A DNA stretch of 43,703 bases, from the sequence record DRR723986_5863, one strand, 5' to 3'. This document shows, one piece after another, positions 1 through 14,536 of the stretch; positions within the stretch are counted from its first letter, which is position 1, and every line of letters starts with the position of its first letter. The notes beneath the pieces are model-generated. The model saw only the letters and a program-made list of their open reading frames with translations. It was not told the origin of the DNA and searched no databases. A program made the position numbers and the translations under genes.

Positions 1-30
1 TCGCGGGTTCGAGCCCCGTCACTCGCGCCA
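1..30 (+). tRNA. 3' end of a tRNA, probably tRNA-Asp(GTC); serves as ICE attachment site (att core). Truncated by window start
   Basis: TCGCGGGTTCGAGCCCCGTCACTCGCGCCA = T-arm with GTTCGA loop, acceptor strand and CCA end; matches the alphaproteobacterial tRNA-Asp 3' end as I recall it; integrase starts 140 bp downstream. Anticodon not visible. Confidence 0.8.
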
Positions 31-116
31 TTTCTTCGGAAATGAAAGCTCCATAACCCCCTGAAATCATTGAACTTATCGGATTAGCGTGATGCCAATC
101 CGGGTTCGACGCCGGT

Positions 117-163
117 GTTTGCACTACAGTTTGCACTACAGTTTGCATACTTTTTGCACTACA
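117..163 (+). repeat. Four tandem 11-12 bp repeats (GTTTGCACTACA), candidate integrase arm-binding sites
   Basis: GTTTGCACTACA 117-128 and 129-140, GTTTGCATAC 141-150, TTTTGCACTACA 152-163, between the tRNA and the integrase ATG. Confidence 0.8.
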
Positions 164-170
164 AATCACG

Positions 171-1550
171 ATGAAGAATACAGGACTTGGAAAAAGATAT
201 CTCAAGGAACGCGGCGGCTGGTGGCACTATCAGCGGCGGGTTCCCTCTCGGTATGTTGACATTGACGACCGTGGTCTGATCCAGATCGCGCTGCGCACCC
301 AATCGATTGAAGTTGCCATGATGCGCCGCGACGGTCTCGCTGAAGCCGACGAAGCAATGTGGAATGCAAAGGCTCTTGAATTGATGGGGCCGAATGGAGA
401 CCGGACGGCTTGGCGGGTTGCAGACCATCGCCACAAGGCGGCTGTCTCACGGGCCATGGCACAGGGCTTTGTTTATCGGCCCGTCGAAGAGATCGCTGCA
501 CTTCCCGATCTAGAAGAGATTGTCGAGCGCCTGAAGGCCACCGACAGAGGCAAAGCGCCAACAGAAGCGAAAGCTGAAGCGCTTCTCGGCGGTGTTCCTG
601 AACCGGTAGATAAGACAACGGTCTCTGAGGCCTTTGAGCTTTATATCTCCAAGATCGCGTTCGACGACCAGTACAACAAATCCGACGCGCAGCGGCGGTC
701 CTGGGAAAAAACCAAGCGCACGTCGATTGACTACTTCATTCAGGAAATCGGCGACATTCCGCTGACGGATATCACACGTGAAATCGCGACGAAATATCGA
801 GACTGGTGGCAGACGCGGATGCTGCCGCAAAAGGACAGCTCAAAGCCTATCACGCCGAACACGGCCAATCGGCATGTCGGCAATATGCGCTCGCTATGCA
901 AACGCTACTTCAAATATCGCGGCGTGACAGATTTCGAGGATCCGTTTCGTGATTTCTTCTTCGCTGGCAAATCAACCGTCAAACGCGCCTCCTTCACGGA
1001 CGACTGGGTGCGCAGTCGCATTCTGGTGCCCGGTCTGTTTGATGGCTTGCGACTTGAGCTGCGGGTCATCATCTATCTTCTGATCGAAACGGGCGCGCGG
1101 CTGAGTGAGGTGGTCAATTTGCGTGCGCAGGATATTCGGCTGGATCATGACGTGCCGCACATCCAGATTCGCGCTGAACAAAACCGTGAATTGAAGACTG
1201 ATGACTCGGAGCGAGAAATCCCGCTTGTTGGTGTCGCCCTTCCGGCAATGCGCCTGTGTCCGACGGGTTTTGATCATTATTATGATCGCAGTACGCTGGT
1301 ATCAGCCAACCTTATGAAAGCCTTCAAACAACGTGATCTCATCCCAAGCCCGGACCATGTCATTTACTCGCTGCGCCACTCATTCGAGGATCGTATGCTC
1401 GAAGGCGGTCTTGATTACGGCCTGCGCTGCGCTTTGATGGGCCACAAGAACAACCGGCCAGAATATGGTCAGGGTGGCTCGCTGGCTTATCGGCGAGATC
1501 AGCTTGAGCGGATCGCGCATCCGTTTGATGCTGCGATGTTTGGGGTGTGA
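171..1550 (+). CDS. Tyrosine integrase of the ICE (DUF6538-like N-terminus)
   Basis: N-terminal YLKERGGWWHYQRRVP; catalytic motifs ETGARLSE, LKT, YSLRH, LMGH, PEYG; adjacent to the tRNA. Confidence 0.92.
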   Translation: MKNTGLGKRYLKERGGWWHYQRRVPSRYVDIDDRGLIQIALRTQSIEVAMMRRDGLAEADEAMWNAKALELMGPNGDRTAWRVADHRHKAAVSRAMAQGFVYRPVEEIAALPDLEEIVERLKATDRGKAPTEAKAEALLGGVPEPVDKTTVSEAFELYISKIAFDDQYNKSDAQRRSWEKTKRTSIDYFIQEIGDIPLTDITREIATKYRDWWQTRMLPQKDSSKPITPNTANRHVGNMRSLCKRYFKYRGVTDFEDPFRDFFFAGKSTVKRASFTDDWVRSRILVPGLFDGLRLELRVIIYLLIETGARLSEVVNLRAQDIRLDHDVPHIQIRAEQNRELKTDDSEREIPLVGVALPAMRLCPTGFDHYYDRSTLVSANLMKAFKQRDLIPSPDHVIYSLRHSFEDRMLEGGLDYGLRCALMGHKNNRPEYGQGGSLAYRRDQLERIAHPFDAAMFGV

Positions 1551-1561
1551 TAACGAAACTC

Positions 1562-1598
1562 CCCCTTTCGACGTCTCTTTTGAGAGGCGTGGAAGGGG
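1562..1598. terminator. Long stem-loop after the integrase, possible terminator
   Basis: CCCCTTTC-G-ACGTCTCT-tttg-AGAGGCGT-GGAAGGGG pairs with two G-T wobbles and one bulge; no U-tract on +. Confidence 0.5.
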
Positions 1599-1822
1599 TA
1601 AAAGAGTGGCCGCGCGCGGGTTCGACAGAGGTGAATATTGTATCCTTTTCAGGGTCTTAGACTTTCAAGAGGGCGATCTGGAAAACGGTCTTGAATACCG
1701 TCTCCGGCCTTATCGAACAGGCCAGCCAGGACCCGGATTTCTGCTTCCCCGTGTGTCCTGAGCGCTTCCCCAGGATGTGCAGTCTTTTGTGTCCTGACGG
1801 GGAAGCATCAGGAGATCGCCTC

Positions 1823-3133
1823 ATGCGCGCCAAACCAAAACTCAAGACATCGCCCGCCCCAAAGCCGGAAGAAGACCGCTTCGAATGGGACAGTTCAGAA
1901 ACGGGTCTCGGAATCCGTCACCGTTCAGACAGGAAACCGGCCTGGTATTTTCAGACGCGGGTCGATGGCAAAACTGTCCGTCGCTCATTGGGGCCTGTAG
2001 AAGACCTTTCCCGCGCAGAAGCCATCTCCAACGCCAATGATCTTCAGGACCAGCTCACCGGCAAGTCGCCTCTGCCAGTCCTCGTTCCGGATGTGCCGAA
2101 AGCCAGTGTCGCCGAGTTCACCGAACGGTTCCTGAGAGATGGTGCCCCCAATTGGAAACCCGCCACCATCACGGCGCACCGATACGTGATTTCCCGCTTC
2201 ATCGTGCCCGCGTTCGGTGCCCGCGATCTTGCCTCCCTGACTGCTGAGGAGGTTGCCACATGGTGGGCGGGGATGGACGCGTCAGCCGGAACCCGCAACC
2301 GCACCCTTGCCGTTCTTTCTGGCATCATTCGGCACGGAGAACTGCTGGGGTTGCGCGCGCCGGGGCTTAACCCCTGCCGGGGGCTCCGGCGACGTAAGTC
2401 CAACTTCCAAGCCCATAGACTGACGAGAGCTGATTATGGACGGCTTGGTGAAGCTCTACAGCATTTCGATCACCAATGGCCGATTGAAACCGCTCTCATT
2501 CGCTTTCTGGCGCTGACAGGCTGCCGCAAGTCCGAAGCCCGCTTTCTGCGCTGGGACATGATCGACGGCAGGCGGGCAGCGCTTCCAGACAGCAAGACCG
2601 GACCCCGTGCGATCTGGCTCGGAACACCGGCAATCAACCTGCTCGCTGCGCGGCCCACGGTCTCAGCGCTTGTGTTCGCCAAGCGCGACAAGCCTGTTTC
2701 AAACAACCAATTGGACAAGATCTGGCACAAGGTCCGTGATCAAGCCGGGTTCGCTAACCTTCGGATGCATGACCTTCGGCACGGGTTTGCATCGGTTGCT
2801 ATCTCATCTGGCGAACCGCTGCGAACCGTGTCCGGCTTGCTCGGACACTCTGACCTGCAGACGACCGCTGGATATGCGCAGTTTGCAGAGGCCCCTGTCA
2901 GAGATGCCGCTAAACGGGTAGCGGCCCATCTTGGAAAGGCGTTGACGGGCAACACAACACAGGCTGCGCCAGCGCCCAAAGGCATGGTCGCCGCATTTCT
3001 GGCTCAAGGGCTCCCCATGGACGCCTTTGCCGACGCTAACGGCATCAGCCTGTCCACGCTTCGCCAGAAGCTCGCGAGGCACTTCAAGGATGTCCGCCTG
3101 TCCCGTGCTGACAGCGAGGGTATCGAGCAATGA
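1823..3133 (+). CDS. Tyrosine recombinase A with Arm-DNA-binding (DUF4102-like) N-terminus
   Basis: AGGAG RBS at 1810-1814 before ATG 1823; WDSSETGLGIR arm domain; LTGCRKSE, DSKTG, HDLRH, LLGH, TAGYA all intact. Confidence 0.9.
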   Translation: MRAKPKLKTSPAPKPEEDRFEWDSSETGLGIRHRSDRKPAWYFQTRVDGKTVRRSLGPVEDLSRAEAISNANDLQDQLTGKSPLPVLVPDVPKASVAEFTERFLRDGAPNWKPATITAHRYVISRFIVPAFGARDLASLTAEEVATWWAGMDASAGTRNRTLAVLSGIIRHGELLGLRAPGLNPCRGLRRRKSNFQAHRLTRADYGRLGEALQHFDHQWPIETALIRFLALTGCRKSEARFLRWDMIDGRRAALPDSKTGPRAIWLGTPAINLLAARPTVSALVFAKRDKPVSNNQLDKIWHKVRDQAGFANLRMHDLRHGFASVAISSGEPLRTVSGLLGHSDLQTTAGYAQFAEAPVRDAAKRVAAHLGKALTGNTTQAAPAPKGMVAAFLAQGLPMDAFADANGISLSTLRQKLARHFKDVRLSRADSEGIEQ

Positions 3134-4314
3134 GCGCGCCGAAGAAGCATCTGACCGACACATTGGCGCGAAAGGCGAAATCCAGAACCCAAGAATACGC
3201 CCTCGCCGACGCCGCCCTGCAAGGGTTCGCGCTTCGCATTCAGCCTTCTGGCGCGAAGACATGGACGCTGAGACTGCGTATTGAGGGAAAAGTTCGCCGA
3301 TTCACGATTGGATCTGCCGAAACGATGAGCGCTGACGAAGCGAGAACGCGCGCGCTGCAGTTGCGCGCTGAGCATCAGCCGAAAACAATCCTGCTGCTCG
3401 CGGCAGCTGACGCGCCTGCCATGACGCTCCGCGAACTCAGCCAATGCCTCCTGCAGGCGAAGGACAGCATTTGGAGGCCGGGCACGATGAGGGCCGTCTC
3501 CACATACCTCAGGGCCGAATTGCTCCCCGCGTTCGGGGACCGTCCGATCAACCGACTGACGACGGCTGAAATTGCCGAATGGTTCCACGCCTACAGCATC
3601 AGGCGACCGGGCGGTGCCAATCAGGCCCTAACGCATCTGCGCACCACCTTGAAGTTTGCAAGGGACACCGGACGTCTGCCGCGCGATGCACCAGACCCGT
3701 CCCGTCCGATCCGCAAGAACACAAGGCGTGCACGCGGGCGGCTCCTCAATGCCGGCCAGCTTGCAAAACTAGGTGCCTGGCTGGAAGCGCCGCAACTGCG
3801 CTGGCTGGATGTCGCCGATGCCATCCATCTGATCCTGCTTACGGGTTGCCGGTCGGGCGAAATCTCACGCTTGCAATGGGCCGAAGTTCTGGAAGATCGT
3901 CTCCGGCTGACGACGGCCAAGACCGGCAGCCGGGACGTGGTCCTGACACCGCCAGCCTTAGCAATCCTTGCGCGGCGGCGCACAGGCGTGCGGTCGTTCT
4001 ATGTGTTCCCTGCCAGCCATGATGCGGGAACACCTATCGGGACATTAGATGTGCCGTGGCGATCCATCCGGGAACACATCGGACTACCCCGTGAAATCCG
4101 CTTGCACGACCTTCGCCACACCTATGCCAGCCAAGCCATCATGACCGGCGAAACACTCAGCATGGCGGGTCAGCTGCTTGGGCACCGAAGACCCCAGACA
4201 ACTGAAATCTATGCCCACCTCGACGCACAGCATCTCGCCGATGCTGCGGACAGAGTCTCCCGATCGATCTCTGAATATCTGGAATCTGGGAGTGGAGCCG
4301 CCGTTCGAATCTGA
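3130..4314 (+). CDS. Tyrosine recombinase B with Arm-DNA-binding (DUF4102-like) N-terminus, translationally coupled to A
   Basis: ATGA overlap at 3130-3133; DAALQGFALRIQPSGAKTW arm domain; LTGCRSGE, TAKTG, HDLRH, LLGH, TEIYA intact. Confidence 0.92.
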   Translation: MSAPKKHLTDTLARKAKSRTQEYALADAALQGFALRIQPSGAKTWTLRLRIEGKVRRFTIGSAETMSADEARTRALQLRAEHQPKTILLLAAADAPAMTLRELSQCLLQAKDSIWRPGTMRAVSTYLRAELLPAFGDRPINRLTTAEIAEWFHAYSIRRPGGANQALTHLRTTLKFARDTGRLPRDAPDPSRPIRKNTRRARGRLLNAGQLAKLGAWLEAPQLRWLDVADAIHLILLTGCRSGEISRLQWAEVLEDRLRLTTAKTGSRDVVLTPPALAILARRRTGVRSFYVFPASHDAGTPIGTLDVPWRSIREHIGLPREIRLHDLRHTYASQAIMTGETLSMAGQLLGHRRPQTTEIYAHLDAQHLADAADRVSRSISEYLESGSGAAVRI

Positions 4315-4379
4315 CCGGGTGGTTGATTAGACTTGACCCAAAATTGCGGGTGCTGGGGTGGCTTATGAACGGCGGCTTT

Positions 4380-4407
4380 ACTTCTGCATTGGGTCAATTG
4401 GAGACAT
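4380..4407. repeat. Putative recombination site A (11-6-11 imperfect palindrome)
   Basis: ACTTCTGCATT-GGGTCA-ATTGGAGACAT; an extra left arm ACGGCGGCTTT abuts it at 4369-4379. Confidence 0.55.
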
Positions 4408-4425
4408 CGCAGACCGGAGTGAAAT

Positions 4426-4995
4426 GTGGGATTGTTCGGGATGCTCACCGAAAACACCTTTCGAGATATTGTGACGTCTGTCCCGGAAAATGCCGAGATA
4501 CTTGCGGTGATGGAACAGTTGAGACTCCCCGATTGCTATCTGACCGCCGGATGTTTGTTTCAGCCGATCTGGAACCGGAAATCCAACCAACCTGATCTTC
4601 AGAACGTCAGGGATTTCGATGTTTTCTACTATGACAGTGACGTATCTTGGGAGGCGGAAAACTGGGTGATAAAGAGCGCAGAAAAACTTCTCGGCCCGCT
4701 GGCGGACCGCGTAGAGATCAGGAATCAAGCACGCGTCCACCTGTGGTATGAACGACGATTTGGAAACCCGATAGCGCCGCTCAAACACTCCCGTGACGGC
4801 ATCGATCAGTTTCTTATCTCATGCACCTGTGTCGGCATCAAAGTGAGCACGCGTGAACTCTATGCGCCATATGGGCTGTCCGAGTTGTCGGATGGCGTGC
4901 TGCGAATGAACCCCGCAAACCCAAAGCCGAAGCTTTTTTTGGAAAAGGCGTTGGACTATCAATCGCGGTGGCCCTGGTTATCTATTCCGCGGTGA
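4426..4995 (+). CDS. Nucleotidyltransferase-family protein (DUF925-like)
   Basis: LPDCYLTAGCLFQPIWN, RDFDVFYYD, VEIRNQARVHLWY, YAPYGL, RWPWL motifs; GGAG before GTG 4426 (alternative ATG 4441). Confidence 0.85.
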   Translation: MGLFGMLTENTFRDIVTSVPENAEILAVMEQLRLPDCYLTAGCLFQPIWNRKSNQPDLQNVRDFDVFYYDSDVSWEAENWVIKSAEKLLGPLADRVEIRNQARVHLWYERRFGNPIAPLKHSRDGIDQFLISCTCVGIKVSTRELYAPYGLSELSDGVLRMNPANPKPKLFLEKALDYQSRWPWLSIPR

Positions 4996-5023
4996 CGTCC
5001 CCTCAGACGCCGGGAGCAGACCA
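4995..5023. repeat. Putative recombination site B0 (11-7-11), overlapping the stop codon of the upstream gene
   Basis: ACGTCCCCTCA-GACGCCG-GGAGCAGACCA. Confidence 0.45.
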
Positions 5024-5030
5024 AGACGCT

Positions 5031-5062
5031 TAGGCTGGATCGGGGGCAAAAGCGGTCGTTAG
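5031..5062. repeat. Putative recombination site B (11-7-11)
   Basis: TAGGCTGGATC-GGGGGCA-AAAGCGGTCGT(TAG); 5047-5062 is a 15/16 inverted match to 12368-12383. Confidence 0.6.
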
Positions 5063-5143
5063 AATTACCTCCAACATCGATCGATTTAGCAGATAGTTCC
5101 CTATTTTTTTGGGCACGTCTGCAAAACGGCAACGGCTTCCCAT

Positions 5144-6349
5144 TTATCCGGTCGATTTCACATCGCGGAACGGCACGTCTTTATCCACGCCGTCGTCTTT
5201 TGGCAGGCCGAGGACGCGTTCCGCAATAATATTCCTTTGGATTTGGTCTGTCCCGCCACCGATAGAGTTCATATAGGCTTTCGCGGCATCGAAATTTGCG
5301 TTCGCCGCATCAGGGGCGTTGGCTCCGTCAAGCAATGCGCGAGGACCAAGAATGTCTGCGGCAATACGTGCTTCGCCGTGCTGTATGCGGGACATGGCCA
5401 GTTTGCCCAGTGACATGAGCGGCGAAGAGCCCGTTTGCATGATCTCTTGCTTTGCGCGTTTATTGTTCAGGGAATTGAGCTGGCGATAGGCAATGGCCGT
5501 CGCTATTTTTTGACGCAAAACTGGATCGGCCTCTTTGTTATGACGCGCGGCCAGTTCAATGAGGAGTGGCTTTTTCGGGCTATTCTGTCGCCCTCTGCGC
5601 TCTGTGCCGCCTTGGGCCATGATCAGGCGCTCATAGGCAATTGCGGTCTGAAATGACTTCCAGCCTTGGCCCGCTTCGCCAATCAAATTGGCGGCGGGCA
5701 CACGTGCCTCGGTAATGAAAACCTCATTGAACTCGGACTCGCCTGTGATCTGATTGATTGGGCGCACATCAACGCCGTCTTGCTTCATGGGGAACAGAAA
5801 AAAGCTGATGCCCTTGTGTTTAGGGACGTCCCAGTCGGTGCGCGCGAGCAGCATGCCATAATCGGCCTCAACCGCGTTTGAGGTCCACACTTTTTGCCCC
5901 GTCACGATATAATCGTCGCCGTCACGTTCAGCGCGGGTGCGGATGCCTGCAAGGTCAGAGCCTGCGCTTGGCTCCGAATAGAGAAGGCAGCAAATAGGCC
6001 CAGACAGCAGGTCTGGTAACATCGCGCGTTTCAGGTCATCAGATCCCAATTTAAATACGGTGATCGCACCCAGATGAAACCGATCACGTCCCCATCCCGG
6101 GGCCTTCACATTGCGAAATGCCTTTTCGATGATGGCCGCTTTTTTGGGCGACAGCCCAAGGCCAAACCAGTCTTGCGGCCATGACGGTGTGGCAAGGCCA
6201 GCATCGCGCACCTCGGTCAACCAAAGGCGCATTTCATTGGGGGAGTTACCCACCGCCTGCATGCGCGCGTCCGTCCAACGTTCTGACAGCCATGCGGTGA
6301 CGGCATCGCTGATCGCTTCGGGGGTGTTGTCAAAAGTGAGCTTGCTCAT
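5144..6349 (-). CDS. Acyl-CoA dehydrogenase (catalytic-type subunit)
   Basis: YSEPSAGSDL, GQKVWTS, EFNEVF, AYER, SIGGGTDQIQRNIIAERVLGLP; start MSKLT overlaps upstream stop (ATGA). Confidence 0.92.
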   Translation of the reverse strand: MSKLTFDNTPEAISDAVTAWLSERWTDARMQAVGNSPNEMRLWLTEVRDAGLATPSWPQDWFGLGLSPKKAAIIEKAFRNVKAPGWGRDRFHLGAITVFKLGSDDLKRAMLPDLLSGPICCLLYSEPSAGSDLAGIRTRAERDGDDYIVTGQKVWTSNAVEADYGMLLARTDWDVPKHKGISFFLFPMKQDGVDVRPINQITGESEFNEVFITEARVPAANLIGEAGQGWKSFQTAIAYERLIMAQGGTERRGRQNSPKKPLLIELAARHNKEADPVLRQKIATAIAYRQLNSLNNKRAKQEIMQTGSSPLMSLGKLAMSRIQHGEARIAADILGPRALLDGANAPDAANANFDAAKAYMNSIGGGTDQIQRNIIAERVLGLPKDDGVDKDVPFRDVKSTG

Positions 6350-7449
6350 GCGGCTGCCTCCCATGTTTGTAGGTAAAGTTCGCGGAATGTGTCGCTGCTG
6401 GCATATAACCATTCGCCCGCGCGGGCGCGGCGCCAGAATAAGTGGGCGTCATGCTCTTTTGTATAGGCAATGCCGCCGTGCATCTGGATGGCCTCGCTTG
6501 AGACGGTGCGAAAGTTGTCAGCGCATGCCAAGGCCGCCAGATAGACGAGCTGGCGCGATTCTGGTTTGTCTGCCGCTAGGGCGAGCGCTGCTTGACGCGA
6601 CACCGTGACCGCTGACTCCGTTTCAACGAGCAGGTCGGCCGCCATATGTTTCAGCGCCTGATAAGACCCAATTTGACGGCCAAACTGATAACGGTCTTTC
6701 AGATACTGAATGGTACGATTGAAAATCTCTTGCGTCGCTCCGGCTTGCTCAGCGGCAAAGCCCGTCAGCGTGAGGTGCAGCGCATGTTCAATTGCGGCAT
6801 CGGACACGCCAGACAGCCGTATTGCAGGCGCACCGGAAAGTGTCACACAGGCAAGCGAGAGGGTTGGGTCGTCCGTTTGCAGGCTGTCGATGGCGGCGTC
6901 ACTTACCGCAACTTCATAGACGCTCACCTCCTCGCCATCACTGGCAGTGATGAGCAGCCTGTCAGCACGGGAGGCATCAAGCGCAAGCCCTGCGACCCCA
7001 TCGAGCCGCCACGTATCGCCCGTGCGCGTGGCGCGAATGTCGGTCGGCGCAAGCCAGTCCTCTGCGGCGTTGCCCCGGACGACGGCATAGACCACCGAGC
7101 CATTCATAATTGCGCTTACCCGCGGGGTGACATAAGCGGTATCTGTGCTCGCCTGTATGAGGCTGGCTGCAAAAACAGCGGTTGAGAGATAAGGCGATGG
7201 CAGGAGCCGCGCGCCCATCACTTCCATGATGGCCTGCAGGTCGGCACTGTCGCCGCCCGCGCCGCCATGTGCCTCGTCCACTAGCAATCCCAACAAGCCG
7301 AGTTCCGCCATTTGCGTCCATAGCGCGCTATCGTACTTAGGCTCTGCCTTAACAGTGTCGCGAAGCGTGTCGGTAGAGGCGACATCGGTTAGCAACCGGT
7401 CTATAACGTCAACCAATGCAAGCCTGTCTTCAACTGTAAGTGCGCTCAT
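6346..7449 (-). CDS. Acyl-CoA dehydrogenase family protein (short partner subunit)
   Basis: LWTQMAELGLLG, RYQFGRQIGSYQALKH, AIQMHGGIAYTKEH; lacks the SEP-GSD motif; GGAG RBS before MSALT. Confidence 0.9.
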   Translation of the reverse strand: MSALTVEDRLALVDVIDRLLTDVASTDTLRDTVKAEPKYDSALWTQMAELGLLGLLVDEAHGGAGGDSADLQAIMEVMGARLLPSPYLSTAVFAASLIQASTDTAYVTPRVSAIMNGSVVYAVVRGNAAEDWLAPTDIRATRTGDTWRLDGVAGLALDASRADRLLITASDGEEVSVYEVAVSDAAIDSLQTDDPTLSLACVTLSGAPAIRLSGVSDAAIEHALHLTLTGFAAEQAGATQEIFNRTIQYLKDRYQFGRQIGSYQALKHMAADLLVETESAVTVSRQAALALAADKPESRQLVYLAALACADNFRTVSSEAIQMHGGIAYTKEHDAHLFWRRARAGEWLYASSDTFRELYLQTWEAAA

Positions 7450-7481
7450 ACCTGCATCATCTCCATCGCGAAATTTAAAAC

Positions 7482-7524
7482 TCGAACATATGTTCAACTT
7501 GCATTAAGTTGAACAATGGTTCAA
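7482..7524. promoter_or_regulatory. Two palindromic operators TYGAAC-N4-GTTCAA in the divergent ACAD/TetR promoter
   Basis: TCGAACATATGTTCAA 7482-7497 and TTGAACAATGGTTCAA 7509-7524; same motif recurs at 12263-12278. Confidence 0.75.
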
Positions 7525-7572
7525 TTTTGATGTCAAGTATTGCGGATCCCTTCCGTCGCGAGGTGTATCAGG

Positions 7573-8208
7573 ATGACAAACACGCAGGCAGCCGCCAACA
7601 CAAGGCGGCAACCCGTACAGGAGCGCGCCGTGAAACGCCGCGCACGCATTGTTGAGGGCGCGATGGAGGTCATCGCAACTGACGGCATTGATGCCCTAAA
7701 TATGCGCGATATTGCGAAAGCCGCCGGCGTTGGCATTGGCACACTATACGACTATTTTCCAAGCCGGTCGGATTTGATCTGCCATGTCACTGATGATTGG
7801 CTGACACGAAAACTTGCAGTGTTTGACGCGACGATTGCGACCGTATCGAAAGACGACAAATTCCGGAACTTTATCGTGCGATACCGCAAGGCTATGCAGG
7901 ATGCTGGGTTTGGAACGCCCTTTGATACAGAGATCAGCCGCGCCGCCGCCAATGACAAAAAGGTCGCGGCCATCATTGATGATTATAGGTCAGAGGCCAT
8001 CGAGCGATACACGCAAGTCCTACAGCACGCGGGATCAACCTGGACCAAGCGCCAATTGCGGCCCATCTCGCGGTTCCTCTTGCAGCTGTCAGAACAAGTT
8101 GAACCCGCCACGGGGTTTGAAGGGACGGCCGAGGACCGCGTCATTGTTGGTGAGCTGATCGCGCAAACAATTGTCAGCACATTAAAACGGACTCTGCAGC
8201 CGCGTTGA
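7573..8208 (+). CDS. TetR/AcrR-family regulator
   Basis: RQPVQERA...LNMRDIAKAAGVGIGTLYDYFPSR HTH. Confidence 0.92.
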   Translation: MTNTQAAANTRRQPVQERAVKRRARIVEGAMEVIATDGIDALNMRDIAKAAGVGIGTLYDYFPSRSDLICHVTDDWLTRKLAVFDATIATVSKDDKFRNFIVRYRKAMQDAGFGTPFDTEISRAAANDKKVAAIIDDYRSEAIERYTQVLQHAGSTWTKRQLRPISRFLLQLSEQVEPATGFEGTAEDRVIVGELIAQTIVSTLKRTLQPR

Positions 8209-8244
8209 GATGACACGCACTGATGGGCATAGAGGGAGCTAAAA

Positions 8245-9513
8245 ATGACATACGGATGGACACTGGCCTGCGGCGTGGCCGCATTGGCGCTGTGCGGGTG
8301 CGCAGGCGAGCCGCAGACAGACGCAGCGACGCAAACAGCAACGACGGCTGCTGCGGTCGACGCACGCTATACACTTGGCGATGGCGGGGTGTCGGACTTC
8401 TATGCATTTGAAGAGGCGATCCCTGCAACGCCGGGCATGCTGCTACGACAGGAACCATTGACGGCAGAGCAATCTGTACCTGGGGCGGCGCGGAATATTC
8501 GGCTGCTCTATACATCGACAGATGGCTTGAATGGGGGCGAACCTATTGTTGTGTCTGGTGGCCTGTTCATCCCGCCCGGTGAGGCCCCCGCAGGCGGTTG
8601 GCCGCTTCTGCTATGGTCACACGGCACAGTCGGGATTGCCGATAAATGTGCGCCGAGTTGGACAGGTTATGTGCCGTTTCATGATGAGCATTTGCAGACA
8701 TGGCTGGACAATGGATATGCCATTGTCGCGTCTGATTATCAGGGGCTGGGCACCGAAGGGACGCACCCCTATCTCGCCACCCGCCCCGCAGCGTTCAGCA
8801 ATCTTGACGTCATACGCGCCGTACAGGCCGCCGACTTCAACCTGACCGATGCCGTTGTGATCGCAGGACAATCCCAAGGCGCAGGCGCAGCGTTCGCGAC
8901 CGCTGGCCATGCCGCAGATTACGCGCCAGATATTGATATCAGAGGCGTCGTCGCAACCGGCATTCCATACTTTACGCCAGAAGCCCTGATCGCTGTGCAA
9001 GAAGCCCGCCCGAATGATGTGGTTGACCCCATGCTAGGATACAACTTCCTCGCGCTGTCCATGATCTCGCTGGTGGAGCCCGACTTTAGTATCGAGGACT
9101 ATGTCTCTGACGCAGCCCTGCCGATGGCGCGCGGCGTTGCTGACATTTGTAACCGCGATATGCGCACTAAAATCGAGGAGGCGGGTTTGACCTATAACAT
9201 GTCCTTCAAACAAAGCCCTGCGGAGCAATTGAAAAAGGCGTTTGCAAAAATGCAATATCCGACGCTGGACCTGCCTGTGCCTGTCTTTGTTGGGACAGGG
9301 TCGACAGACCGCGATACGCCGCCGCGCATGCAAGCCGGATTGGCAAAACGTGCCTGCGCGGCTGGCACCACTATTGAAGCGCGGTTTTATGACGGCTTTG
9401 ACCATCTGACCGTCTTGAACCATTCCCAAATGGACTCGCTGCCCTTTGTGGCGAAGGCCTTTGCAGGCGATGATATTGCGGGAAACTGCGCAGATCTTCC
9501 CTACGATAAGTAG
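8245..9513 (+). CDS. Secreted lipase (LIP family, alpha/beta hydrolase), probable lipoprotein
   Basis: Lipoprotein-type signal LCGC, HGTVG, DYQGLG, nucleophile GQSQG, GSTDRD, DH. Confidence 0.88.
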   Translation: MTYGWTLACGVAALALCGCAGEPQTDAATQTATTAAAVDARYTLGDGGVSDFYAFEEAIPATPGMLLRQEPLTAEQSVPGAARNIRLLYTSTDGLNGGEPIVVSGGLFIPPGEAPAGGWPLLLWSHGTVGIADKCAPSWTGYVPFHDEHLQTWLDNGYAIVASDYQGLGTEGTHPYLATRPAAFSNLDVIRAVQAADFNLTDAVVIAGQSQGAGAAFATAGHAADYAPDIDIRGVVATGIPYFTPEALIAVQEARPNDVVDPMLGYNFLALSMISLVEPDFSIEDYVSDAALPMARGVADICNRDMRTKIEEAGLTYNMSFKQSPAEQLKKAFAKMQYPTLDLPVPVFVGTGSTDRDTPPRMQAGLAKRACAAGTTIEARFYDGFDHLTVLNHSQMDSLPFVAKAFAGDDIAGNCADLPYDK

Positions 9514-9537
9514 GCGGATCCATCTCACCTCGAAACC

Positions 9538-9572
9538 AAAAAAAATGGGCGGCCCTATGACAGGGCCGCCCA
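9538..9572 (-). terminator. Intrinsic terminator between the convergent lipase and TonB receptor genes
   Basis: TGGGCGGCCCT-atgac-AGGGCCGCCCA 9546-9572 with an A8 run at 9538-9545 (U-tract on minus). Confidence 0.85.
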
Positions 9573-9598
9573 GTTAGAAACGAAGGAAGAGGTTCGTT

Positions 9599-12175
9599 CT
9601 AGAATTTCGTCCTCAAGGTCACGCCGTACGTGGCGGGGTCTTGCACGAACTGCGCACGCGCGCGGTTGCCGGCACTGCCGCGCAACGAAACGTTAAACGT
9701 CACGCCCTTGGTGCGCTCGTCCGTGACATTATTGCCCCACAGTTCCACAGCCCAGCGCTCATCAATCGTGGCCAGCCCGACCCGCAGATTGACCTTGGTG
9801 TGAGCCTCTTGAATGTCGCCTGGCAATAGCAGGGATGGGTTGGAGACTTCGACCGCCTGCGTTGAGGTTCTGCGGTCACTCTCATAACGGGCCGATGCCG
9901 TGGCAAAGAAGTTTGCATTACCATTGAAGACGGGCGTCTCATAGGTGCCGCCACCGATAATGGCCCAGTCAGGCGCATTGGTCAGTTTCTGGCCGCACAG
10001 GGTTGAGGCATTTCTGATAAAGTCAGGATCAGTTGCATCCTGCGTCGCGCAATCATCGGGATAGCGCGCATCAGTATATGTCACGCCGACATTACCACTG
10101 AAGGCGTCCGTGAATTGCATCTGGCTTTCCACCTCGATGCCCGTGCTGATCGCTTTGTCGACATTGAACGTCTGAAACTGGACACCTGTAAATTCAAGTA
10201 CCTGAAAGTCTTCAAATTCCTGATGGAACGCTGCAATGTTGAGCGTTGCCCGTCCATCAAGCAAGGTCGATTTCAAGCCAATTTCAAACGCATCAACTTT
10301 TTCTGAGTCAAAGCGCGGGTCAGCGCCCGCCCCTGCCGCAGACGCATCAAGGTTGAAGCCACCTGATTTAAAGCCGTGCGTAAAGCCGCCATAAATATTG
10401 ACGTCTGGTGATAATTCATAGCCAGCTTTCAGCGTATAGATCAGCTCCTCATCTTCAAATGTATCGCTGAACTCCTGAGGCAACAGGCCGAGCAGGGCGG
10501 CGGCCGGTGATTGCGCAATGGCCCCGAATAGTGGGCCAGGATTGGCGGGATCAAATACGGGCGCAGTAAACACAAAACAGTTAAGCGCCACGGCATTTCC
10601 GGTCAAACTGGCCGGTATACCGCCAAGGTTTTGGAATGTGCCAAGACAGGCATTGTGCTGCCCTGCGACCTGATCAAAGCTGCCATCCTTGGTTTCTTCG
10701 ACATAACGAAGGCCGAGGGTCACATTGAACTGGTCGGTGACGCTAAACACATTGTGCGTAAAAACAGAGATGGATTGCGCCGACTGTGCAAACTCATTCG
10801 TTGCAAAGTCACCCTCTGCGGACGCGCCGCCCGCAAAGCTGAGCAGCAGATTGTTTGGGCTGCCGAACAGGCCAGCGCTGAGCCCGCGCTGATAGTCACC
10901 CAGCAGCGTCACAGTGGCCCGCGACCCAATCTCTTCGTCCGAATAGTAGAAGCCAACCAGCCAATCGAGCCGGTCATCAAACGCTGTATTCTGCAGGCGC
11001 AGTTCGTGGGATTGGGTCTCAACATCGATGCCATTTTCAGGCGCGGTGCTGCCCACGGCGCGTACCTCTGGCGTGATGCCTGTTGCGAAAATATCCAGGC
11101 CGACAAAGTCATTATCGCGTCCAGATTGCGCGCTGTAATCGCGGTATGCGCCAATGTAAGTCAGGTCGCCAAATGGTAGTTCGTTCTCATAGGCCAGCGA
11201 GATGCCCCACTGTTCAAACGGGTTCCGGAAGGACGTACCATTGCCCTTATAGTCATCCAGTGCGGCATCACCGACATTCGGCGCGCCGCCGCCCGCGCCA
11301 AGCGGTGTCGCCGCGAAGACAGCGCGCTGCGCAGCATCTTGCAACCAGACGGCATCGCAGCATTCATCCTTGCCCTCAGCATAGTCAGCGATCAGGCGGA
11401 ACTGGCCATTGTCAGCAAGGTCCAGCAGGGCCTGTCCGCGCAGGGTCAAACGGTCACGCGTATTGGTGTCCTGACCATCAAACTTCTCGACAAGGCCGCT
11501 ACGGTCGCGCGTTGCGCCAGACAGGCGGACGGCAAACTTATCTTCCACAATCGGGATGTTCACACCGGCCTGCAGGTTGACCAGATCATAGTTGCCAACG
11601 GTCAGGTTTCCGAACCCGCTAAACTCATCAAGATCAGGCTTCTTTGTTTGGATGCTCAACGCGCCCGATGATGTGTTGCGCCCAAAAAGGGTGCCTTGTG
11701 GACCGCGCAAAACTTCGATCTGCTCTACGTCCAGCAAATCGGCCAACGCAATGCCGGGCCGCGAGAGGTATTCCCCATCGAGAAAAACGCCCACCGCGCT
11801 TTCAAGACCGATATTATTACCCGTGGTACCAACGCCGCGCACACGCAACACGGTGCCGCCGGACTCAGAATCAGACGATGTCATGCTGAAGCTTGAGGCG
11901 ACAGAATCGAGCGTTCTGATGTCTGCAACGCCTGCACGTTCGAGTGTCTTGGCATCAACGGCCGTCACCGCAATTGGCACATCTTGTATCGTTGCGCCCT
12001 CACGCCGTGTGGCTGTCACTTGAATGGTATTGAGACGTCGTGCTTCGGCCTCAGGGGCCGCAGGTGCTGCGGTTTCGCCTGTTTGCTCTTGAGCGGTCGC
12101 CGCCATTGGCAAGGTCAGTGCGACGAGTGATGCCGTGGCTAAAAGCCCGCCGAATCTCCGTGTTGATGTGGTCAT
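9599..12175 (-). CDS. TonB-dependent outer-membrane receptor
   Basis: Signal peptide, TIQVTATRR TonB box, IEVLRGPQGTLFGRN plug motif, C-terminal TYGVTLRTKF. Confidence 0.95.
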   Translation of the reverse strand: MTTSTRRFGGLLATASLVALTLPMAATAQEQTGETAAPAAPEAEARRLNTIQVTATRREGATIQDVPIAVTAVDAKTLERAGVADIRTLDSVASSFSMTSSDSESGGTVLRVRGVGTTGNNIGLESAVGVFLDGEYLSRPGIALADLLDVEQIEVLRGPQGTLFGRNTSSGALSIQTKKPDLDEFSGFGNLTVGNYDLVNLQAGVNIPIVEDKFAVRLSGATRDRSGLVEKFDGQDTNTRDRLTLRGQALLDLADNGQFRLIADYAEGKDECCDAVWLQDAAQRAVFAATPLGAGGGAPNVGDAALDDYKGNGTSFRNPFEQWGISLAYENELPFGDLTYIGAYRDYSAQSGRDNDFVGLDIFATGITPEVRAVGSTAPENGIDVETQSHELRLQNTAFDDRLDWLVGFYYSDEEIGSRATVTLLGDYQRGLSAGLFGSPNNLLLSFAGGASAEGDFATNEFAQSAQSISVFTHNVFSVTDQFNVTLGLRYVEETKDGSFDQVAGQHNACLGTFQNLGGIPASLTGNAVALNCFVFTAPVFDPANPGPLFGAIAQSPAAALLGLLPQEFSDTFEDEELIYTLKAGYELSPDVNIYGGFTHGFKSGGFNLDASAAGAGADPRFDSEKVDAFEIGLKSTLLDGRATLNIAAFHQEFEDFQVLEFTGVQFQTFNVDKAISTGIEVESQMQFTDAFSGNVGVTYTDARYPDDCATQDATDPDFIRNASTLCGQKLTNAPDWAIIGGGTYETPVFNGNANFFATASARYESDRRTSTQAVEVSNPSLLLPGDIQEAHTKVNLRVGLATIDERWAVELWGNNVTDERTKGVTFNVSLRGSAGNRARAQFVQDPATYGVTLRTKF

Positions 12176-12262
12176 GTCTATCTTCCTCCCAGATCGGCTT
12201 TGCGCCGCTTTTGTATCATTCCGCCTCGCGCGCTGACGTAACGTGCGTTCGACCTATAAGAC

Positions 12263-12278
12263 TTGAACAACTGTTCGA
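12263..12278. promoter_or_regulatory. Third TetR-type operator, upstream of the TonB receptor
   Basis: TTGAACAACTGTTCGA; partial copy ending GTTCGA at 12237-12252. Confidence 0.7.
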
Positions 12279-12367
12279 GTTTCTGTCAAGACATTGGAAT
12301 CGGCCCTGCGCGATCAGCGTCGTCATCATCCCGCAGAGTTGGACTATCGACTGTCATACTAATGGGG

Positions 12368-12398
12368 CTAACGTCCGCTTTTGGGATTTTGGAGCCTT
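12368..12398. repeat. Putative recombination site C (11-6-11)
   Basis: (CTA)ACGTCCGCTTT-TGGGAT-TTTGGAGCCTT; left arm is complementary to site B right arm; right arm resembles site A right arm (TTGGAG.C). Confidence 0.6.
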
Positions 12399-12640
12399 CA
12401 GCGTTGGCTCGTATGCGGATCGCATTTACGCAGAAGATTGAATGCCAACCCAACTACTTGATCATCATGCAAATCGACGACATTGTGACCATGGGCCGCT
12501 CGGTCCGAGTTCAAGCTGGCGCAAAGTCAAAAGCCGGTCGCATCTGAGAGCATTGGTTTTGCTCGAAAATTATGGCGGCCAGTCTTGGAGTTTCGGTATC
12601 TTCCTTCACCGCCAGGTGAGTGGGGTGTGATACCCGATAC

Positions 12641-12722
12641 AACAGTCTATAGGTTGTAACTTCGTATAGAAAAACAAATTATAGATTGTTAAATAAATTC
12701 ATGCTAACAAGCTATGAATTGT
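12641..12722. promoter_or_regulatory. Three 17-bp operator-like repeats upstream of mobile mystery protein A
   Basis: AACAGTCTATAGGTTGT 12641-12657, AACAAATTATAGATTGT 12673-12689, AACAAGCTATGAATTGT 12706-12722. Confidence 0.65.
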
Positions 12723-12742
12723 AAAATGGATTGGGTCTACTT

Positions 12743-13201
12743 ATGGACAGGTCTCTCAAACGTGCCCGTGCGGCGCTCGATAAACGCGTAAACGTGCTGA
12801 GGCAAATGGATCAGGTATCTGCGCCTCCGAAGGGATGGGTGCGGGCGATTCGGGACGCTATTGGCATGTCGGGTGTGCAATTGGCTGGTCGCATGGGGGT
12901 ATCGCAGCAGGCGATCAACGCTCTGGAGCAATCCGAGGCGAACGAAACCATTCGCCTTGAGACACTGCGTAAGGCTGCTGCCGCACTCGATTGTCAGTTG
13001 GTCTATGCGCTTGTGCCCAATAAGCCGCTTGAAGAGATGGTGGCGACGCGTGCGCGTGCCAAAGCGCTAGAGGCGCTTGGCGGGATTTCCCATTCCATGG
13101 CGATGGAGGACCAAAAAGTTCTGAACGATGACCTCGAAGAGCGAATTGCAATTTTCATCGCCGAGACCTTGCGGGACCGTGATTTGTGGGAGCCTTCGTG
13201 A
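12743..13201 (+). CDS. Mobile mystery protein A (Xre-family HTH)
   Basis: PPKGWVRAIRDAIGMSGVQLAGRMGVSQQ..LEQSE, LDCQLVYALVP, HSMAMEDQ; start may be TTG 12731. Confidence 0.9.
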   Translation: MDRSLKRARAALDKRVNVLRQMDQVSAPPKGWVRAIRDAIGMSGVQLAGRMGVSQQAINALEQSEANETIRLETLRKAAAALDCQLVYALVPNKPLEEMVATRARAKALEALGGISHSMAMEDQKVLNDDLEERIAIFIAETLRDRDLWEPS

Positions 13202-13785
13202 CGGACCTGTTTCAGGAGCCCGAAGATGCAACACCGCTCGCCCCAGAAGAGCGGGACGGGCTCCGCCTATCCTGGGTCACGACGCGAGCTGATCTCAATG
13301 TCGCTGAGCAAGACAATATCGACAAAGGTGCAGCCTGGGCATTCCGCGCGCGGCGACGGGACATGCTGACCGTCGATTTTGCGCTGCAATTGCATAAGCA
13401 TATGTTTGGAGATGTCTGGACATGGGCGGGACAGTATCGGCGTACTGAACGTAATATCGGGATCGCGCCCTATCTGATTGGTGTGCAAACAGGCCAACTT
13501 ATGGGAGATGCGACCTATTGGGTTGAGCATGAAACCTATCAGCCAATCGAACTTGCAGTTCGGCTCCACCATAAGTTGGTCTTCATCCACCCGTTTCCCA
13601 ATGGAAATGGACGCCATGCGCGATTGATGGCCGATCTGTTGCTACAACGCCTTGGAGTTCCTGCGCTCAGCTGGGGCGGTGGGTCACTTAACGATCTGAC
13701 GGCGCTGCGCCGCGGCTATGTCGATGCGCTTCGCTTGGCAGACCGCGAAGATTATGAGGCTTTGATCGCATTTGCCCAGTCCTGA
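13198..13785 (+). CDS. Mobile mystery protein B (Fic domain)
   Basis: Canonical Fic motif HPFPNGNGRHAR; ATPL..EE..GL, WTWAGQYR; GTGA overlap with protein A. Confidence 0.92.
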   Translation: MTDLFQEPEDATPLAPEERDGLRLSWVTTRADLNVAEQDNIDKGAAWAFRARRRDMLTVDFALQLHKHMFGDVWTWAGQYRRTERNIGIAPYLIGVQTGQLMGDATYWVEHETYQPIELAVRLHHKLVFIHPFPNGNGRHARLMADLLLQRLGVPALSWGGGSLNDLTALRRGYVDALRLADREDYEALIAFAQS

Positions 13786-13978
13786 CGCTTTGCCTTGAGC
13801 CGGTTGAGAGTTTTCTATGTTGGCGCAATCTGGCTTCGACGCGTTTCGCCCGATCAGAACGGGCATCCAGTTCCGCTTCAAGTCGCTCGAAGATGGGCCA
13901 GTATCTGTAACCATAAAGATCGATCATCTTTGCAGCGATACCCAGCGCATCTTCGAGGTCCTGATCGCTCACGGCCAT
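13688..13978 (-). CDS. Small hypothetical protein at the end of the trb operon; C-terminus runs antisense into the Fic gene
   Basis: ATG 9 nt after the DUF736 stop; protein-like N-half (LEDALGIAAKMIDLYGYRYWPIFERLEAEL). Confidence 0.55.
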   Translation of the reverse strand: MAVSDQDLEDALGIAAKMIDLYGYRYWPIFERLEAELDARSDRAKRVEARLRQHRKLSTGSRQSVRTGQMRSKPHNLRGLPSEAHRHSRGAAPSDR

Positions 13979-13987
13979 GGGAAGTCA

Positions 13988-14296
13988 CTATTTCGTCCGG
14001 TTCCAGACCATGACGCCGGTGCCGTCAGCTTCGTTCTCGAAGAAGGCGGCGCGCATAGGGCTGGCGAAACTGGGGTCGTCCAATTTGACTGACAGGTACG
14101 GCGTCTCGCCGCTCTTGCTTTCCTCGCGCCAGGCGGCGCCGAGTTCTGCGCCGCCAGCGTAGAGCCGGAAATCCGGCGCGCTGTCGCTGGCCTTGTCCGC
14201 ATTGGGAACAAGCTGCGCTTTCACATTGATCGTCATGGTGCGAATGGTGCCAGTATAGGTGCCATCCTTTGCGGTAAAGGTTCCGATCTGTGCCAT
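13988..14296 (-). CDS. DUF736-family protein
   Basis: MAQIGTF..YTGTIRT, APDFRLYAG.ELGAAW, YLSVKLDDPSF. Confidence 0.9.
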   Translation of the reverse strand: MAQIGTFTAKDGTYTGTIRTMTINVKAQLVPNADKASDSAPDFRLYAGGAELGAAWREESKSGETPYLSVKLDDPSFASPMRAAFFENEADGTGVMVWNRTK

Positions 14297-14299
14297 GGG

Positions 14300-14536
14300 T
14301 TAGTCCTCCGTTCTGGCATTGGTGTGGAGGGCGCGGCGCGCCCGTTTGAACCCGGTGTCACCACCGAGAAATTGGTGCAGCATGGCCGGGATCAACGCTT
14401 CGGGTTTTTCTTCCGCGCCATAGGTCTGGCGGTAGATTTTCGAGTAATCGGCGAGCGCTGAAGCCAGTTCCGGGTCAACCGCAATGCTCATGCGGACGGG
14501 CGTGCGGTCTGGTAATTTATCAAGACGAAGGCTCAT
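14300..14536 (-). CDS. DUF2274-family protein
   Basis: LRLDKLPDRTPVRMSI, LADY..Y..TYG, LIPAML; typical position after trbI. Confidence 0.88.
   Translation of the reverse strand: MSLRLDKLPDRTPVRMSIAVDPELASALADYSKIYRQTYGAEEKPEALIPAMLHQFLGGDTGFKRARRALHTNARTED

Follow-up and report, generated by a model that had tools for sequence, protein, structure and literature searches.

Results

An 11-kb unit with the same core at both ends

We analysed a stretch of 43,703 nucleotides from sequence record DRR723986_5863 (the window), in which two overlapping tyrosine recombinase genes, encoding Int2 and Int3, belong to a unit of 11,090 bp (positions 1541-12630) with direct copies of the 10-bp core TGGGGTGTGA at its two ends. 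We consider it likely that this unit is an integrative, probably mobilizable island whose normal target is the same 10-bp core within an origin of transfer (oriT). A first-pass annotation of the window had proposed a different system, in which the recombinase pair captures, excises or shuffles gene cassettes at degenerate palindromes of 11-6/7-11 geometry that delimit the element and its cargo. The unit is ordered as core, leader, Int2, Int3, a single cargo block, a right arm with a hairpin, and core:

1541-1550, + strand: left 10-bp core TGGGGTGTGA; contigs of runs X2, X6 and X8 diverge from the window here
1551-1822, + strand: conserved leader, putative P′ arm of the attachment site attP, from alignments with relatives
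1823-3133, + strand: Int2, tyrosine recombinase of 436 aa with a C-terminal tail of ~80 aa (Phage_integrase, 67.5 bits)
3130-4314, + strand: Int3, tyrosine recombinase of 394 aa, IntSXT/P4 type (Arm-DNA-bind_3, 46.9 bits; Phage_integrase, 57.6 bits)
12382-12620, + strand: conserved right arm of ~240 bp, putative P arm and oriT mimic, from an alignment of 12 right ends
12621-12630, + strand: right core TGGGGTGTGA; contigs of runs X2, X6 and X8 diverge from the window after 12630

For the boundary test, contigs of runs X2, X4, X6 and X8 (four runs, four studies) were aligned to window positions 1-14000; the stretch 1300-5100 had matches in public runs of nine studies. The contigs of X2, X6 and X8 matched 1541-12630 with 0-2 differences and carried unlike sequence before 1541 and after 12630, and the X4 contig kept the window's own flanks. 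The divergence falls precisely at 1541 and 12630, so what moves is the complete 11,090-bp unit, including its cargo, which was unchanged among the unit copies from the four runs. The 12-mer TGGGGTGTGATA occurs in the window only at 1541 and 12621, on the same strand, and was found 0 times in 100 shuffles of the window, the background used for window scans. In all 11 relatives whose downstream sequence was long enough for a right-end check, a second same-strand core followed the first after 7.7-20 kb; this right core has one mismatch in G043 and is shared with a tandem unit in G082. Direct repeats, an integrase at one end, and empty as well as occupied sites were all found, as in a site-specific integrative element. 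Comparison shows that the unit is discrete, that its insertion is site-specific with a core on both sides, and that its cargo travels intact.

Comparison also showed tandem accretion of units. Two units of different subfamilies share one common core in G082 (C1 2343613 and 2353183; L212 and L228), where Int3 of the second unit is interrupted. G112 (L131 4346-4850) retains an orphan right arm with its core and, after these, a decayed leader lacking integrase genes.

The usual target resembles an F-type nic site

In 11 of the 12 related loci that carry the Int2-Int3 pair, a type IV coupling protein (T4CP) gene and a TrwC gene lie directly upstream of the left core, as parts of a set that comprises a small gene, the T4CP (TrwB_AAD_bind) and a 361-aa TrwC-family relaxase (PF08751). 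The left core of these relatives is preceded by the hairpin GCACC-AAA-GGTGC plus one base, and the left loose ends of the X2 and X6 contigs have the same hairpin-plus-core sequence. In the oriT oligonucleotides of the F plasmid, a hairpin is followed by one G and then by TGGGGTGT, and the 3′ fragment begins at G (PMC3074121). Because the core and its spacing equal those of the F oligonucleotides, the core has the geometry of an F-type nic site. The relatives combine an inverted repeat, a nic sequence and an adjoining gene for a TrwC/TraI-family relaxase, the sequence features of a MOB_F-type oriT. In sequence and geometry, the usual target of the island therefore appears to be an F-type oriT nic site.

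Unoccupied copies of the target were also present. In a comparison set of 262 family genomes, the 16-mer GGTGCATGGGGTGTGA was found at 29 loci in 25 genomes, and not at all in the controls; the leader follows it at 15 of these loci and is absent at 14. At one locus, in G115, the left flank of the X2 unit (30/30 nt), the core and the right flank of the X2 unit are joined with no island between them, and the right flank equals that of X2 except for a C-run one base shorter. G118 carries, island-free, the right flank seen after the L011 unit. Judged by these alignments, the G115 and G118 loci are empty versions of occupied sites. A further candidate, G078 as the empty site for G044, was dropped since only the right flank matched. 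G001 offers the island family a ready natural target: at C7 8294-8309 (L216) it has a TrwC-type oriT core that is unoccupied and continues with ACACCC...

The left core of the window itself is a hybrid with a pseudo-site in the 3′ end of int1, a third tyrosine recombinase gene, which together with a tRNA gene end had been overlooked in the first-pass annotation:

1-30, + strand: 3′ end of a tRNA-Asp(GTC) gene (window 1-44 match G001 C4 at 93%, where ARAGORN calls tRNA-Asp)
171-1550, + strand: Int1, tyrosine integrase of the surrounding integrative and conjugative element (ICE); Pfam DUF6538 and Phage_integrase

Compared with the homologues in G118 and G053, the last codons and the stop of int1 were rewritten by the island insertion. 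The native 3′ ends read ...ATGTTTGGGTGA in G118 and ...ATGTTTGGTTGTTGA in G053, and the window reads ...ATGTTTGGGGTGTGATAA. The two homologous proteins end in ...MFG* and ...MFGC*, without the core, and that of G001 ends in ...AALF*. The window copy would accordingly have landed in a look-alike site (TTTGGG..TGA), the end of the ICE integrase gene near tRNA-Asp. In G053, G063 and G118, int1 is separated by 2.6-3.6 kb, with other genes between, from a gene pair encoding HTH and Fic proteins that follows the island in the window, so that the history of the window includes loss or absence of that stretch. In the HTH-Fic flank of G053 and G063, homology to the window begins at 12642.

Conserved arms flank the core

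The leader (~270-280 bp upstream of Int2) is conserved across loci whose integrases are only ~60% identical. Over its last 100 nt it is 82-96% identical to its relatives, compared with 67-78% for the coding sequences, and its conservation starts at TGGGGTGTGA (1541) regardless of the left neighbour. Its last 60 nt contain a conserved stem that pairs with the ribosome-binding site of Int2. The leader is present in 14 of the 262 family genomes. A promoter and terminator scan of window positions 1450-1900 returned nothing.

The 12 aligned right arms fall into two subtypes that track the integrase subfamily, and leader and right arm co-vary with that subfamily. In the window, the right-arm hairpin TCACC-GCCA-GGTGA (12606-12619) ends 1 nt before the right core, and a perfect 5-6-bp hairpin ending at the same distance was found in the window and nine relatives. 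The stems (TCACC/GGTGA, TCACT/AGTGA, GCATC/GATGC and GCATCA/TGATGC) show compensatory changes across copies. These hairpins were taken from a per-copy scan, since RNAalifold on the right arm returned one stem only, with the subtypes misaligned. No Rfam family was found in the window at gathering thresholds.

Int2 and Int3 form a conserved pair

The first-pass annotation correctly described two coupled, catalytically intact tyrosine recombinases. Their genes overlap by 4 bp (ATGA), and the catalytic residues R..HxxR..H..Y are present in both and invariant across 20 Int2 homologues and 25 Int3 homologues. The ATG of Int2 is preceded by AGGAGA, and the mechanical open reading frame begins at a TTG at 1691. 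Integrases of the IntSXT/P4 type combine an N-terminal DUF4102/Arm-DNA-bind_3 domain with a catalytic R..HxxR..H..Y domain (PMC8138268); Int3 has this form, with PF13356 (Arm-DNA-bind_3) above the cut-off of 27 bits and invariant catalytic residues. Int2 scored 21.9 bits for PF13356, under the cut-off, and homologues of Int2 carry the domain. Neither protein reaches the equivalog models of XerC or XerD: Int2 scored 52.7 and 46.1 bits and Int3 51.9 and 37.5 bits against models with cut-offs of 335 and 330 bits. Likewise, scores for the integron integrase model (IntI, TIGR02249) were 39.9 bits for Int2 and 27.5 bits for Int3, far from the cut-off of 265 bits.

Homologues of Int2 and Int3 share contigs, and tandem Int2-like/Int3-like pairs were found at 39 of the 80 loci retrieved with an Int3 profile. 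By these comparisons, the pair is a conserved, translationally coupled module. The predicted Int2-Int3 complex scored 0.39, and the control 0.31, a difference that we count neither for nor against the pair. Int3 is not followed by a conserved small gene. The distant tandem pairs occur in Alphaproteobacteria, Gammaproteobacteria, Acidobacteriota, Chloroflexota and Longimicrobiales, mostly not beside tRNA genes.

The palindromes are a separate repeat family

All five palindromic sites of the first-pass annotation (A, B0, B, D and C) read exactly as it transcribed them. Their arm-to-arm complementarity is weak, amounting to 7/11 for A, 6/11 for B0, 4/11 for B, 3/11 for D and 4/11 for C. With the earlier consensus, the window had 19 sites at ≥15/22 compared with 12.8±3.4 in the shuffles, and 7 at ≥16/22 compared with 2.2±1.4, counts that include the sites used to make the consensus. 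A position weight matrix (PWM) was built from the arms only, leaving out the spacers, of 23 independent palindromes from other genomes. It gave 14.7 bits for A, 10.8 for C, 9.6 for B0, 3.6 for B and -15.5 for D. Five window sites reached at least 8 bits, compared with 0.92 (maximum 4) in the shuffles, and two of these (35511 and 36887) lie outside the reported region. Of the spacer classes in the palindrome family, the two most frequent are those seen in A (GGGTCA) and B0 (GACGCCG). Because of these scores and family spacers, A and B0 are real, degenerate family members; B and D fail the independent matrix. The sites, listed unstranded, and the gene among them are:

4380-4407: palindrome A, spacer GGGTCA, the best PWM site in the window (14.7 bits)
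4426-4995, + strand: NTP_transf_6 nucleotidyltransferase (PF06042, 139 bits), with the geometry of palindrome-bounded cassettes in relatives
4995-5023: palindrome B0, spacer GACGCCG (9.6 bits), beginning at the NTP_transf_6 stop
5031-5059: half-site B (3.6 bits)
12371-12398: site C (10.8 bits), reduced to a perfect left arm and situated at the beginning of the conserved right arm, where it aligns with G044

Repeats in G218, G217, G028 and G050 match site B at 83-94% identity over 34-40 nt. B retains just the right half of a family palindrome and C just the left half; D is a chance match. A, B0 and B frame one gene, NTP_transf_6: A stands 66 nt after Int3 and ends 18 nt before the NTP_transf_6 start. 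Because A precedes the start so closely and B0 begins at the stop, NTP_transf_6 looks like a single-gene cassette of the palindrome family with worn sites. No close relative of this cassette was found in the 262 family genomes (best match, 65%). Palindrome sites were absent from the other cargo junctions, and in the four closest loci the corresponding places show no conservation of any of the five.

In other genomes the family is clearer. The earlier consensus found nine sites at ≥17 in relatives, compared with 1.2 expected, including clean palindromes with recurring spacers. The strict pattern GTCYGCT, 9-13 nt, AGCRGAC gave 10, 8, 3, 1 and 0 sites in five genomes (controls, 0-2), and a stricter pattern occurred in 9 of 301 sampled alphaproteobacterial genomes (controls, 0). 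The family form is 28-29 bp long, with arms GTCYGCTTT / AAAGCRGAC and spacers of 6-7 nt in a few classes. Copies that start with ATG, such as one in G047, translate to peptides similar to the spurious ones that the first-pass annotation had mentioned. In G034 (L178 13218-19138), G060 (L188 594-3487) and G047 (L176 and L177), the sites form arrays in which a single one separates each small gene, mostly of unknown function, from the next. An 812-bp block in which two sites enclose a gene for a 244-aa hydrolase recurs in G034, G054, G073 and G060 at 87-90% identity with differing neighbours. No integron integrase above the cut-off was found in the five array-bearing genomes, and attC sites are far longer than the sites of this family. 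In geometry, palindromes A and B0 match the 11-6/8-11 layout of XerCD/dif-type sites.

We conclude that the palindromes are a separate repeat family that arrived with part of the cargo. As a tentative idea, to which we give rather less than even weight, they would serve for recombination in a so far undescribed system of single-gene cassettes in Alphaproteobacteria that resembles integrons, with the zone after Int3 as one docking place. In such a system, host Xer-like proteins could supply the recombinase; the Int2-Int3 pair is the least likely candidate.

Discussion

Mechanism and alternatives

In the mechanism that we favour, Int2 and Int3 would be the enzymes acting at the core and would jointly recombine attP (right arm, core and leader) with an oriT core. 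The island's own hairpin and core would then be a usable origin, from which a TrwC-type relaxase and the neighbouring T4CP could move the island, and would also restore an origin to the host element.

Several observations weigh against this mechanism. A one-sided hairpin is a requirement of a relaxase and not of a tyrosine recombinase. Genes for TrwC and T4CP are missing from the window, whose left core also lacks an adjacent hairpin. Neither circle joints nor empty-site joints were seen in the aligned contigs; such contigs drop rare forms, so their absence is no evidence. Most of the more distant pairs (35 of 39, at ~35% identity) have no TrwC, with T4CP or TrwC hits at only four, and among 18 distant pairs with flanks of up to 10 kb, direct repeats (17-19 nt) were found around those of L013 and L030 only. 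Finally, palindromes of at least 8 bits are about three times denser in the cargo (20 in 127.8 kb) than outside it (16 in 293.5 kb), a density that leaves room for some link between the islands and the palindromes.

An alternative is movement by a relaxase only, in which TrwC would start at the left core, terminate at the right core and insert the segment into a nic-like site of the recipient, while Int2 and Int3 do something else, for example multimer resolution or moving a larger element. TrwC requires the proximal repeat arm, the single-strand bases up to the nick and a purine after it (PMC4176350), and it recombines two nic copies and integrates DNA into one (PMC4176350, PMC3264647). At all right ends scored, compensatory changes have preserved an F-type nic whose hairpin lies 1 nt upstream, and the identity of the left and right copies ends 2 nt past the inferred nick, as this route would have it. 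However, in every unit the core is bordered by the pair and by conserved arms of ~500 bp, the usual layout of attP plus integrase; no relaxase gene lies beside the units in the window and G178; and the same pair architecture is widespread without TrwC. We regard movement by the relaxase alone as unlikely.

Cassette shuffling by Int2 and Int3 at the palindromes, with the site after Int3 as a docking site, fares worse. A palindrome does lie within 200 nt of Int3 in 5 of 11 rows, representing three independent unit types: at 66 nt in the window, at 178 nt in G077 and at 154 nt in the G034/G075/G093 unit, where it is weak (8.5 bits). Together with the cargo density given above and the palindrome-bounded mobile single-gene cassettes elsewhere, this is what speaks for a role of the pair. 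However, the cargo is identical in copies of the unit from four runs and four studies, and in three array regions of G034 and G047 no Int2 or Int3 homologue was found within the 16-36 kb retrieved. The cargo of two of the 11 related units (G117 and G082) is free of palindromes, in the five type-II units no palindrome comes closer than 1.2 kb to Int3, and sites D and B fail the independent matrix. Downstream gene content does differ between relatives, as the first-pass annotation expected of homologous pairs, but the motif does not stand at each junction; unit copies break at TGGGGTGTGA and not at palindromes, and only NTP_transf_6 is framed by them. What survives of the integron- or pdif-like interpretation is the palindrome family itself, which is real and bounds mobile cassettes elsewhere; the proposed building of cassettes by Int2-Int3 at these sites does not, and we consider shuffling by the pair improbable.

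It is very hard to maintain that nothing here moves as a unit and that decayed island DNA with coincidental repeats accreted at tRNA-Asp, as three integrase genes in a row by a tRNA and a left copy without a hairpin might suggest, because units identical to this one are found in other surroundings with both end points unchanged, empty sites exist, and TGGGGTGTGATA never arose in the shuffles.

Comparison with known systems

The closest precedent for the oriT-targeting island is IME_oriT of Streptococcus agalactiae, whose tyrosine integrase has as its target the nic site conserved in the oriT of ICEs, with more than one copy possible (PMC5704250). Both are tyrosine-integrase elements in the oriT nic site of other conjugative elements. 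The present island differs from what is described of IME_oriT in its alphaproteobacterial host, in its F/TrwC-type (MOB_F-like) target nic, in having two coupled IntSXT-type integrases rather than one, and in carrying, besides 7-20 kb of cargo, a hairpin-plus-core copy of its own. The iOriT islands carry oriT only and no relaxase (bioRxiv 10.64898/2026.01.13.699239). Like them, the unit in the window combines integrases with an oriT-like site, lacks relaxase and mating-pore genes and would need a helper; unlike in the iOriT islands as described, its oriT-like site is the attachment core, and the island sits inside the oriT of the helper.

The nic sites of F TraI and R388 TrwC resemble the island core in having a hairpin and a short single-strand recognition sequence up to the nick (PMC3074121, PMC4176350), and TGGGGTGT followed by G is identical in the island core and the F oligonucleotides (PMC3074121). 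In contrast to F and R388, the relaxases adjacent to the islands are relaxase-domain proteins of ~361 aa, the site is flanked by integrase arms, and the nic is known here by sequence. For the palindrome family, pdif modules of Acinetobacter (PMC7399989) and integron cassettes offer a likeness of geometry: 28-29 bp, 11-6/7-11, bounding single genes. The palindrome arms differ in being the same sequence inverted, and IntI was below the cut-off in the five array genomes.

RIT elements and Tn554 are islands with a multi-recombinase operon at one end, variable cargo and short direct repeats. A reading of the three integrases as a RIT trio was ruled out, since Int1 is absent from all 12 related loci and lies outside the conserved module. 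GInt elements have three integrases plus GinD, a small HLH protein (ginABCD), and an AT-rich 3′ end (PMC5385486). Although GInt and the island share several tyrosine recombinase genes in an operon at one end, variable cargo and short direct repeats, the island module consists of two genes with arm-binding domains and is not of the GInt type.

A literature search that extended neither to subscription journals nor to supplements found no paper on coupled IntSXT-type pairs, on integrase islands in MOB_F-type origins, or on the 28-29-bp palindromes. Mobilizable elements that target oriT were already known; the new element is probably an oriT-targeting mobilizable island with paired integrases.

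Cargo and surrounding element

Downstream of Int3, the gene order is NTP_transf_6, two acyl-CoA dehydrogenases, TetR, a lipase-like hydrolase and a TonB-dependent receptor:

5144-7497, - strand: two acyl-CoA dehydrogenase subunits (5144-6412 and 6346-7497; Pfam, NCBIfam)
7540-8208, + strand: TetR-family regulator (Pfam); the best NCBIfam match is KstR, under the cut-off
8245-9513, + strand: lipase or alpha-beta hydrolase (Pfam)
9599-12175, - strand: TonB-dependent receptor with plug and beta-barrel domains

The acyl-CoA dehydrogenases are PimC/PimD- and IpdE2-like, under the NCBIfam cut-offs. An inverted-repeat pair of 20 nt, 90% complementary, is located at 7478-7497, in the divergent promoter of the acyl-CoA dehydrogenase and TetR genes, and at 12263-12282, upstream of the TonB receptor; both copies are also palindromes in their own right, around GAAC..GTTC. 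This repeat is probably the operator of the TetR regulator, and if it is, the cargo is tied into one regulon.

Three + strand tyrosine-recombinase genes, for Int1, Int2 and Int3, stand in a row after tRNA-Asp. The 3′ end of tRNA-Asp is the attachment context of the surrounding ICE and lies outside the two-integrase unit; the window holds no second copy of the tRNA-Asp 26-mer. The motif GCACTACA occurs three times at 121-165, between the tRNA-Asp end and the Int1 start, and may represent arm-type sites for Int1. Beyond the TonB receptor are the HTH-Fic pair, a trb-type type IV secretion operon (TrbI/CagX/VirB8/TrbL/VirB4/VirB3/VirB11-like), and metal-efflux, ArdC, ParB-like and relaxase genes. 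An integrase at tRNA-Asp, a type IV secretion operon and a relaxase with DUF3363 are the hallmarks of an ICE, and the genes surrounding the island together are one, so the island does ride in an ICE as the first-pass annotation held. Small contigs of the nearest genome, G001, match the window from ~16.8 kb on (16800-43703) at 92-100% identity, which does not hold for positions 1550-14400. G001 also has diverged second copies (76-82%) of the conjugation and metal-efflux part, indicating that it contains more than one related ICE. The HTH_3-Fic/Doc pair (12731-13785) looks like a toxin-antitoxin-type module. Upstream of it, an AT-rich stretch (12640-12730) with three copies of TATAG(G/A)TTGT, kept in G053 and G063, is probably its operator.

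Biological meaning

The cassettes bounded by palindromes form a lead of their own, possibly the more novel one, towards what may be a gene-cassette system distinct from integrons and from the pdif modules of Acinetobacter. The Int2-Int3 module makes it possible to test whether two different arm-binding integrases work together, in an arrangement that extends over several phyla in the survey of 80 loci. If our interpretation of the island is true, ten bases serve two machines, as the nick site of a relaxase and as the attachment core of an integrase pair. The island would park in the transfer origin of its helper and keep a working-looking origin on both sides, which would give its cargo, here lipid-catabolism genes and a TonB receptor, a compact hitch-hiking route between bacteria.

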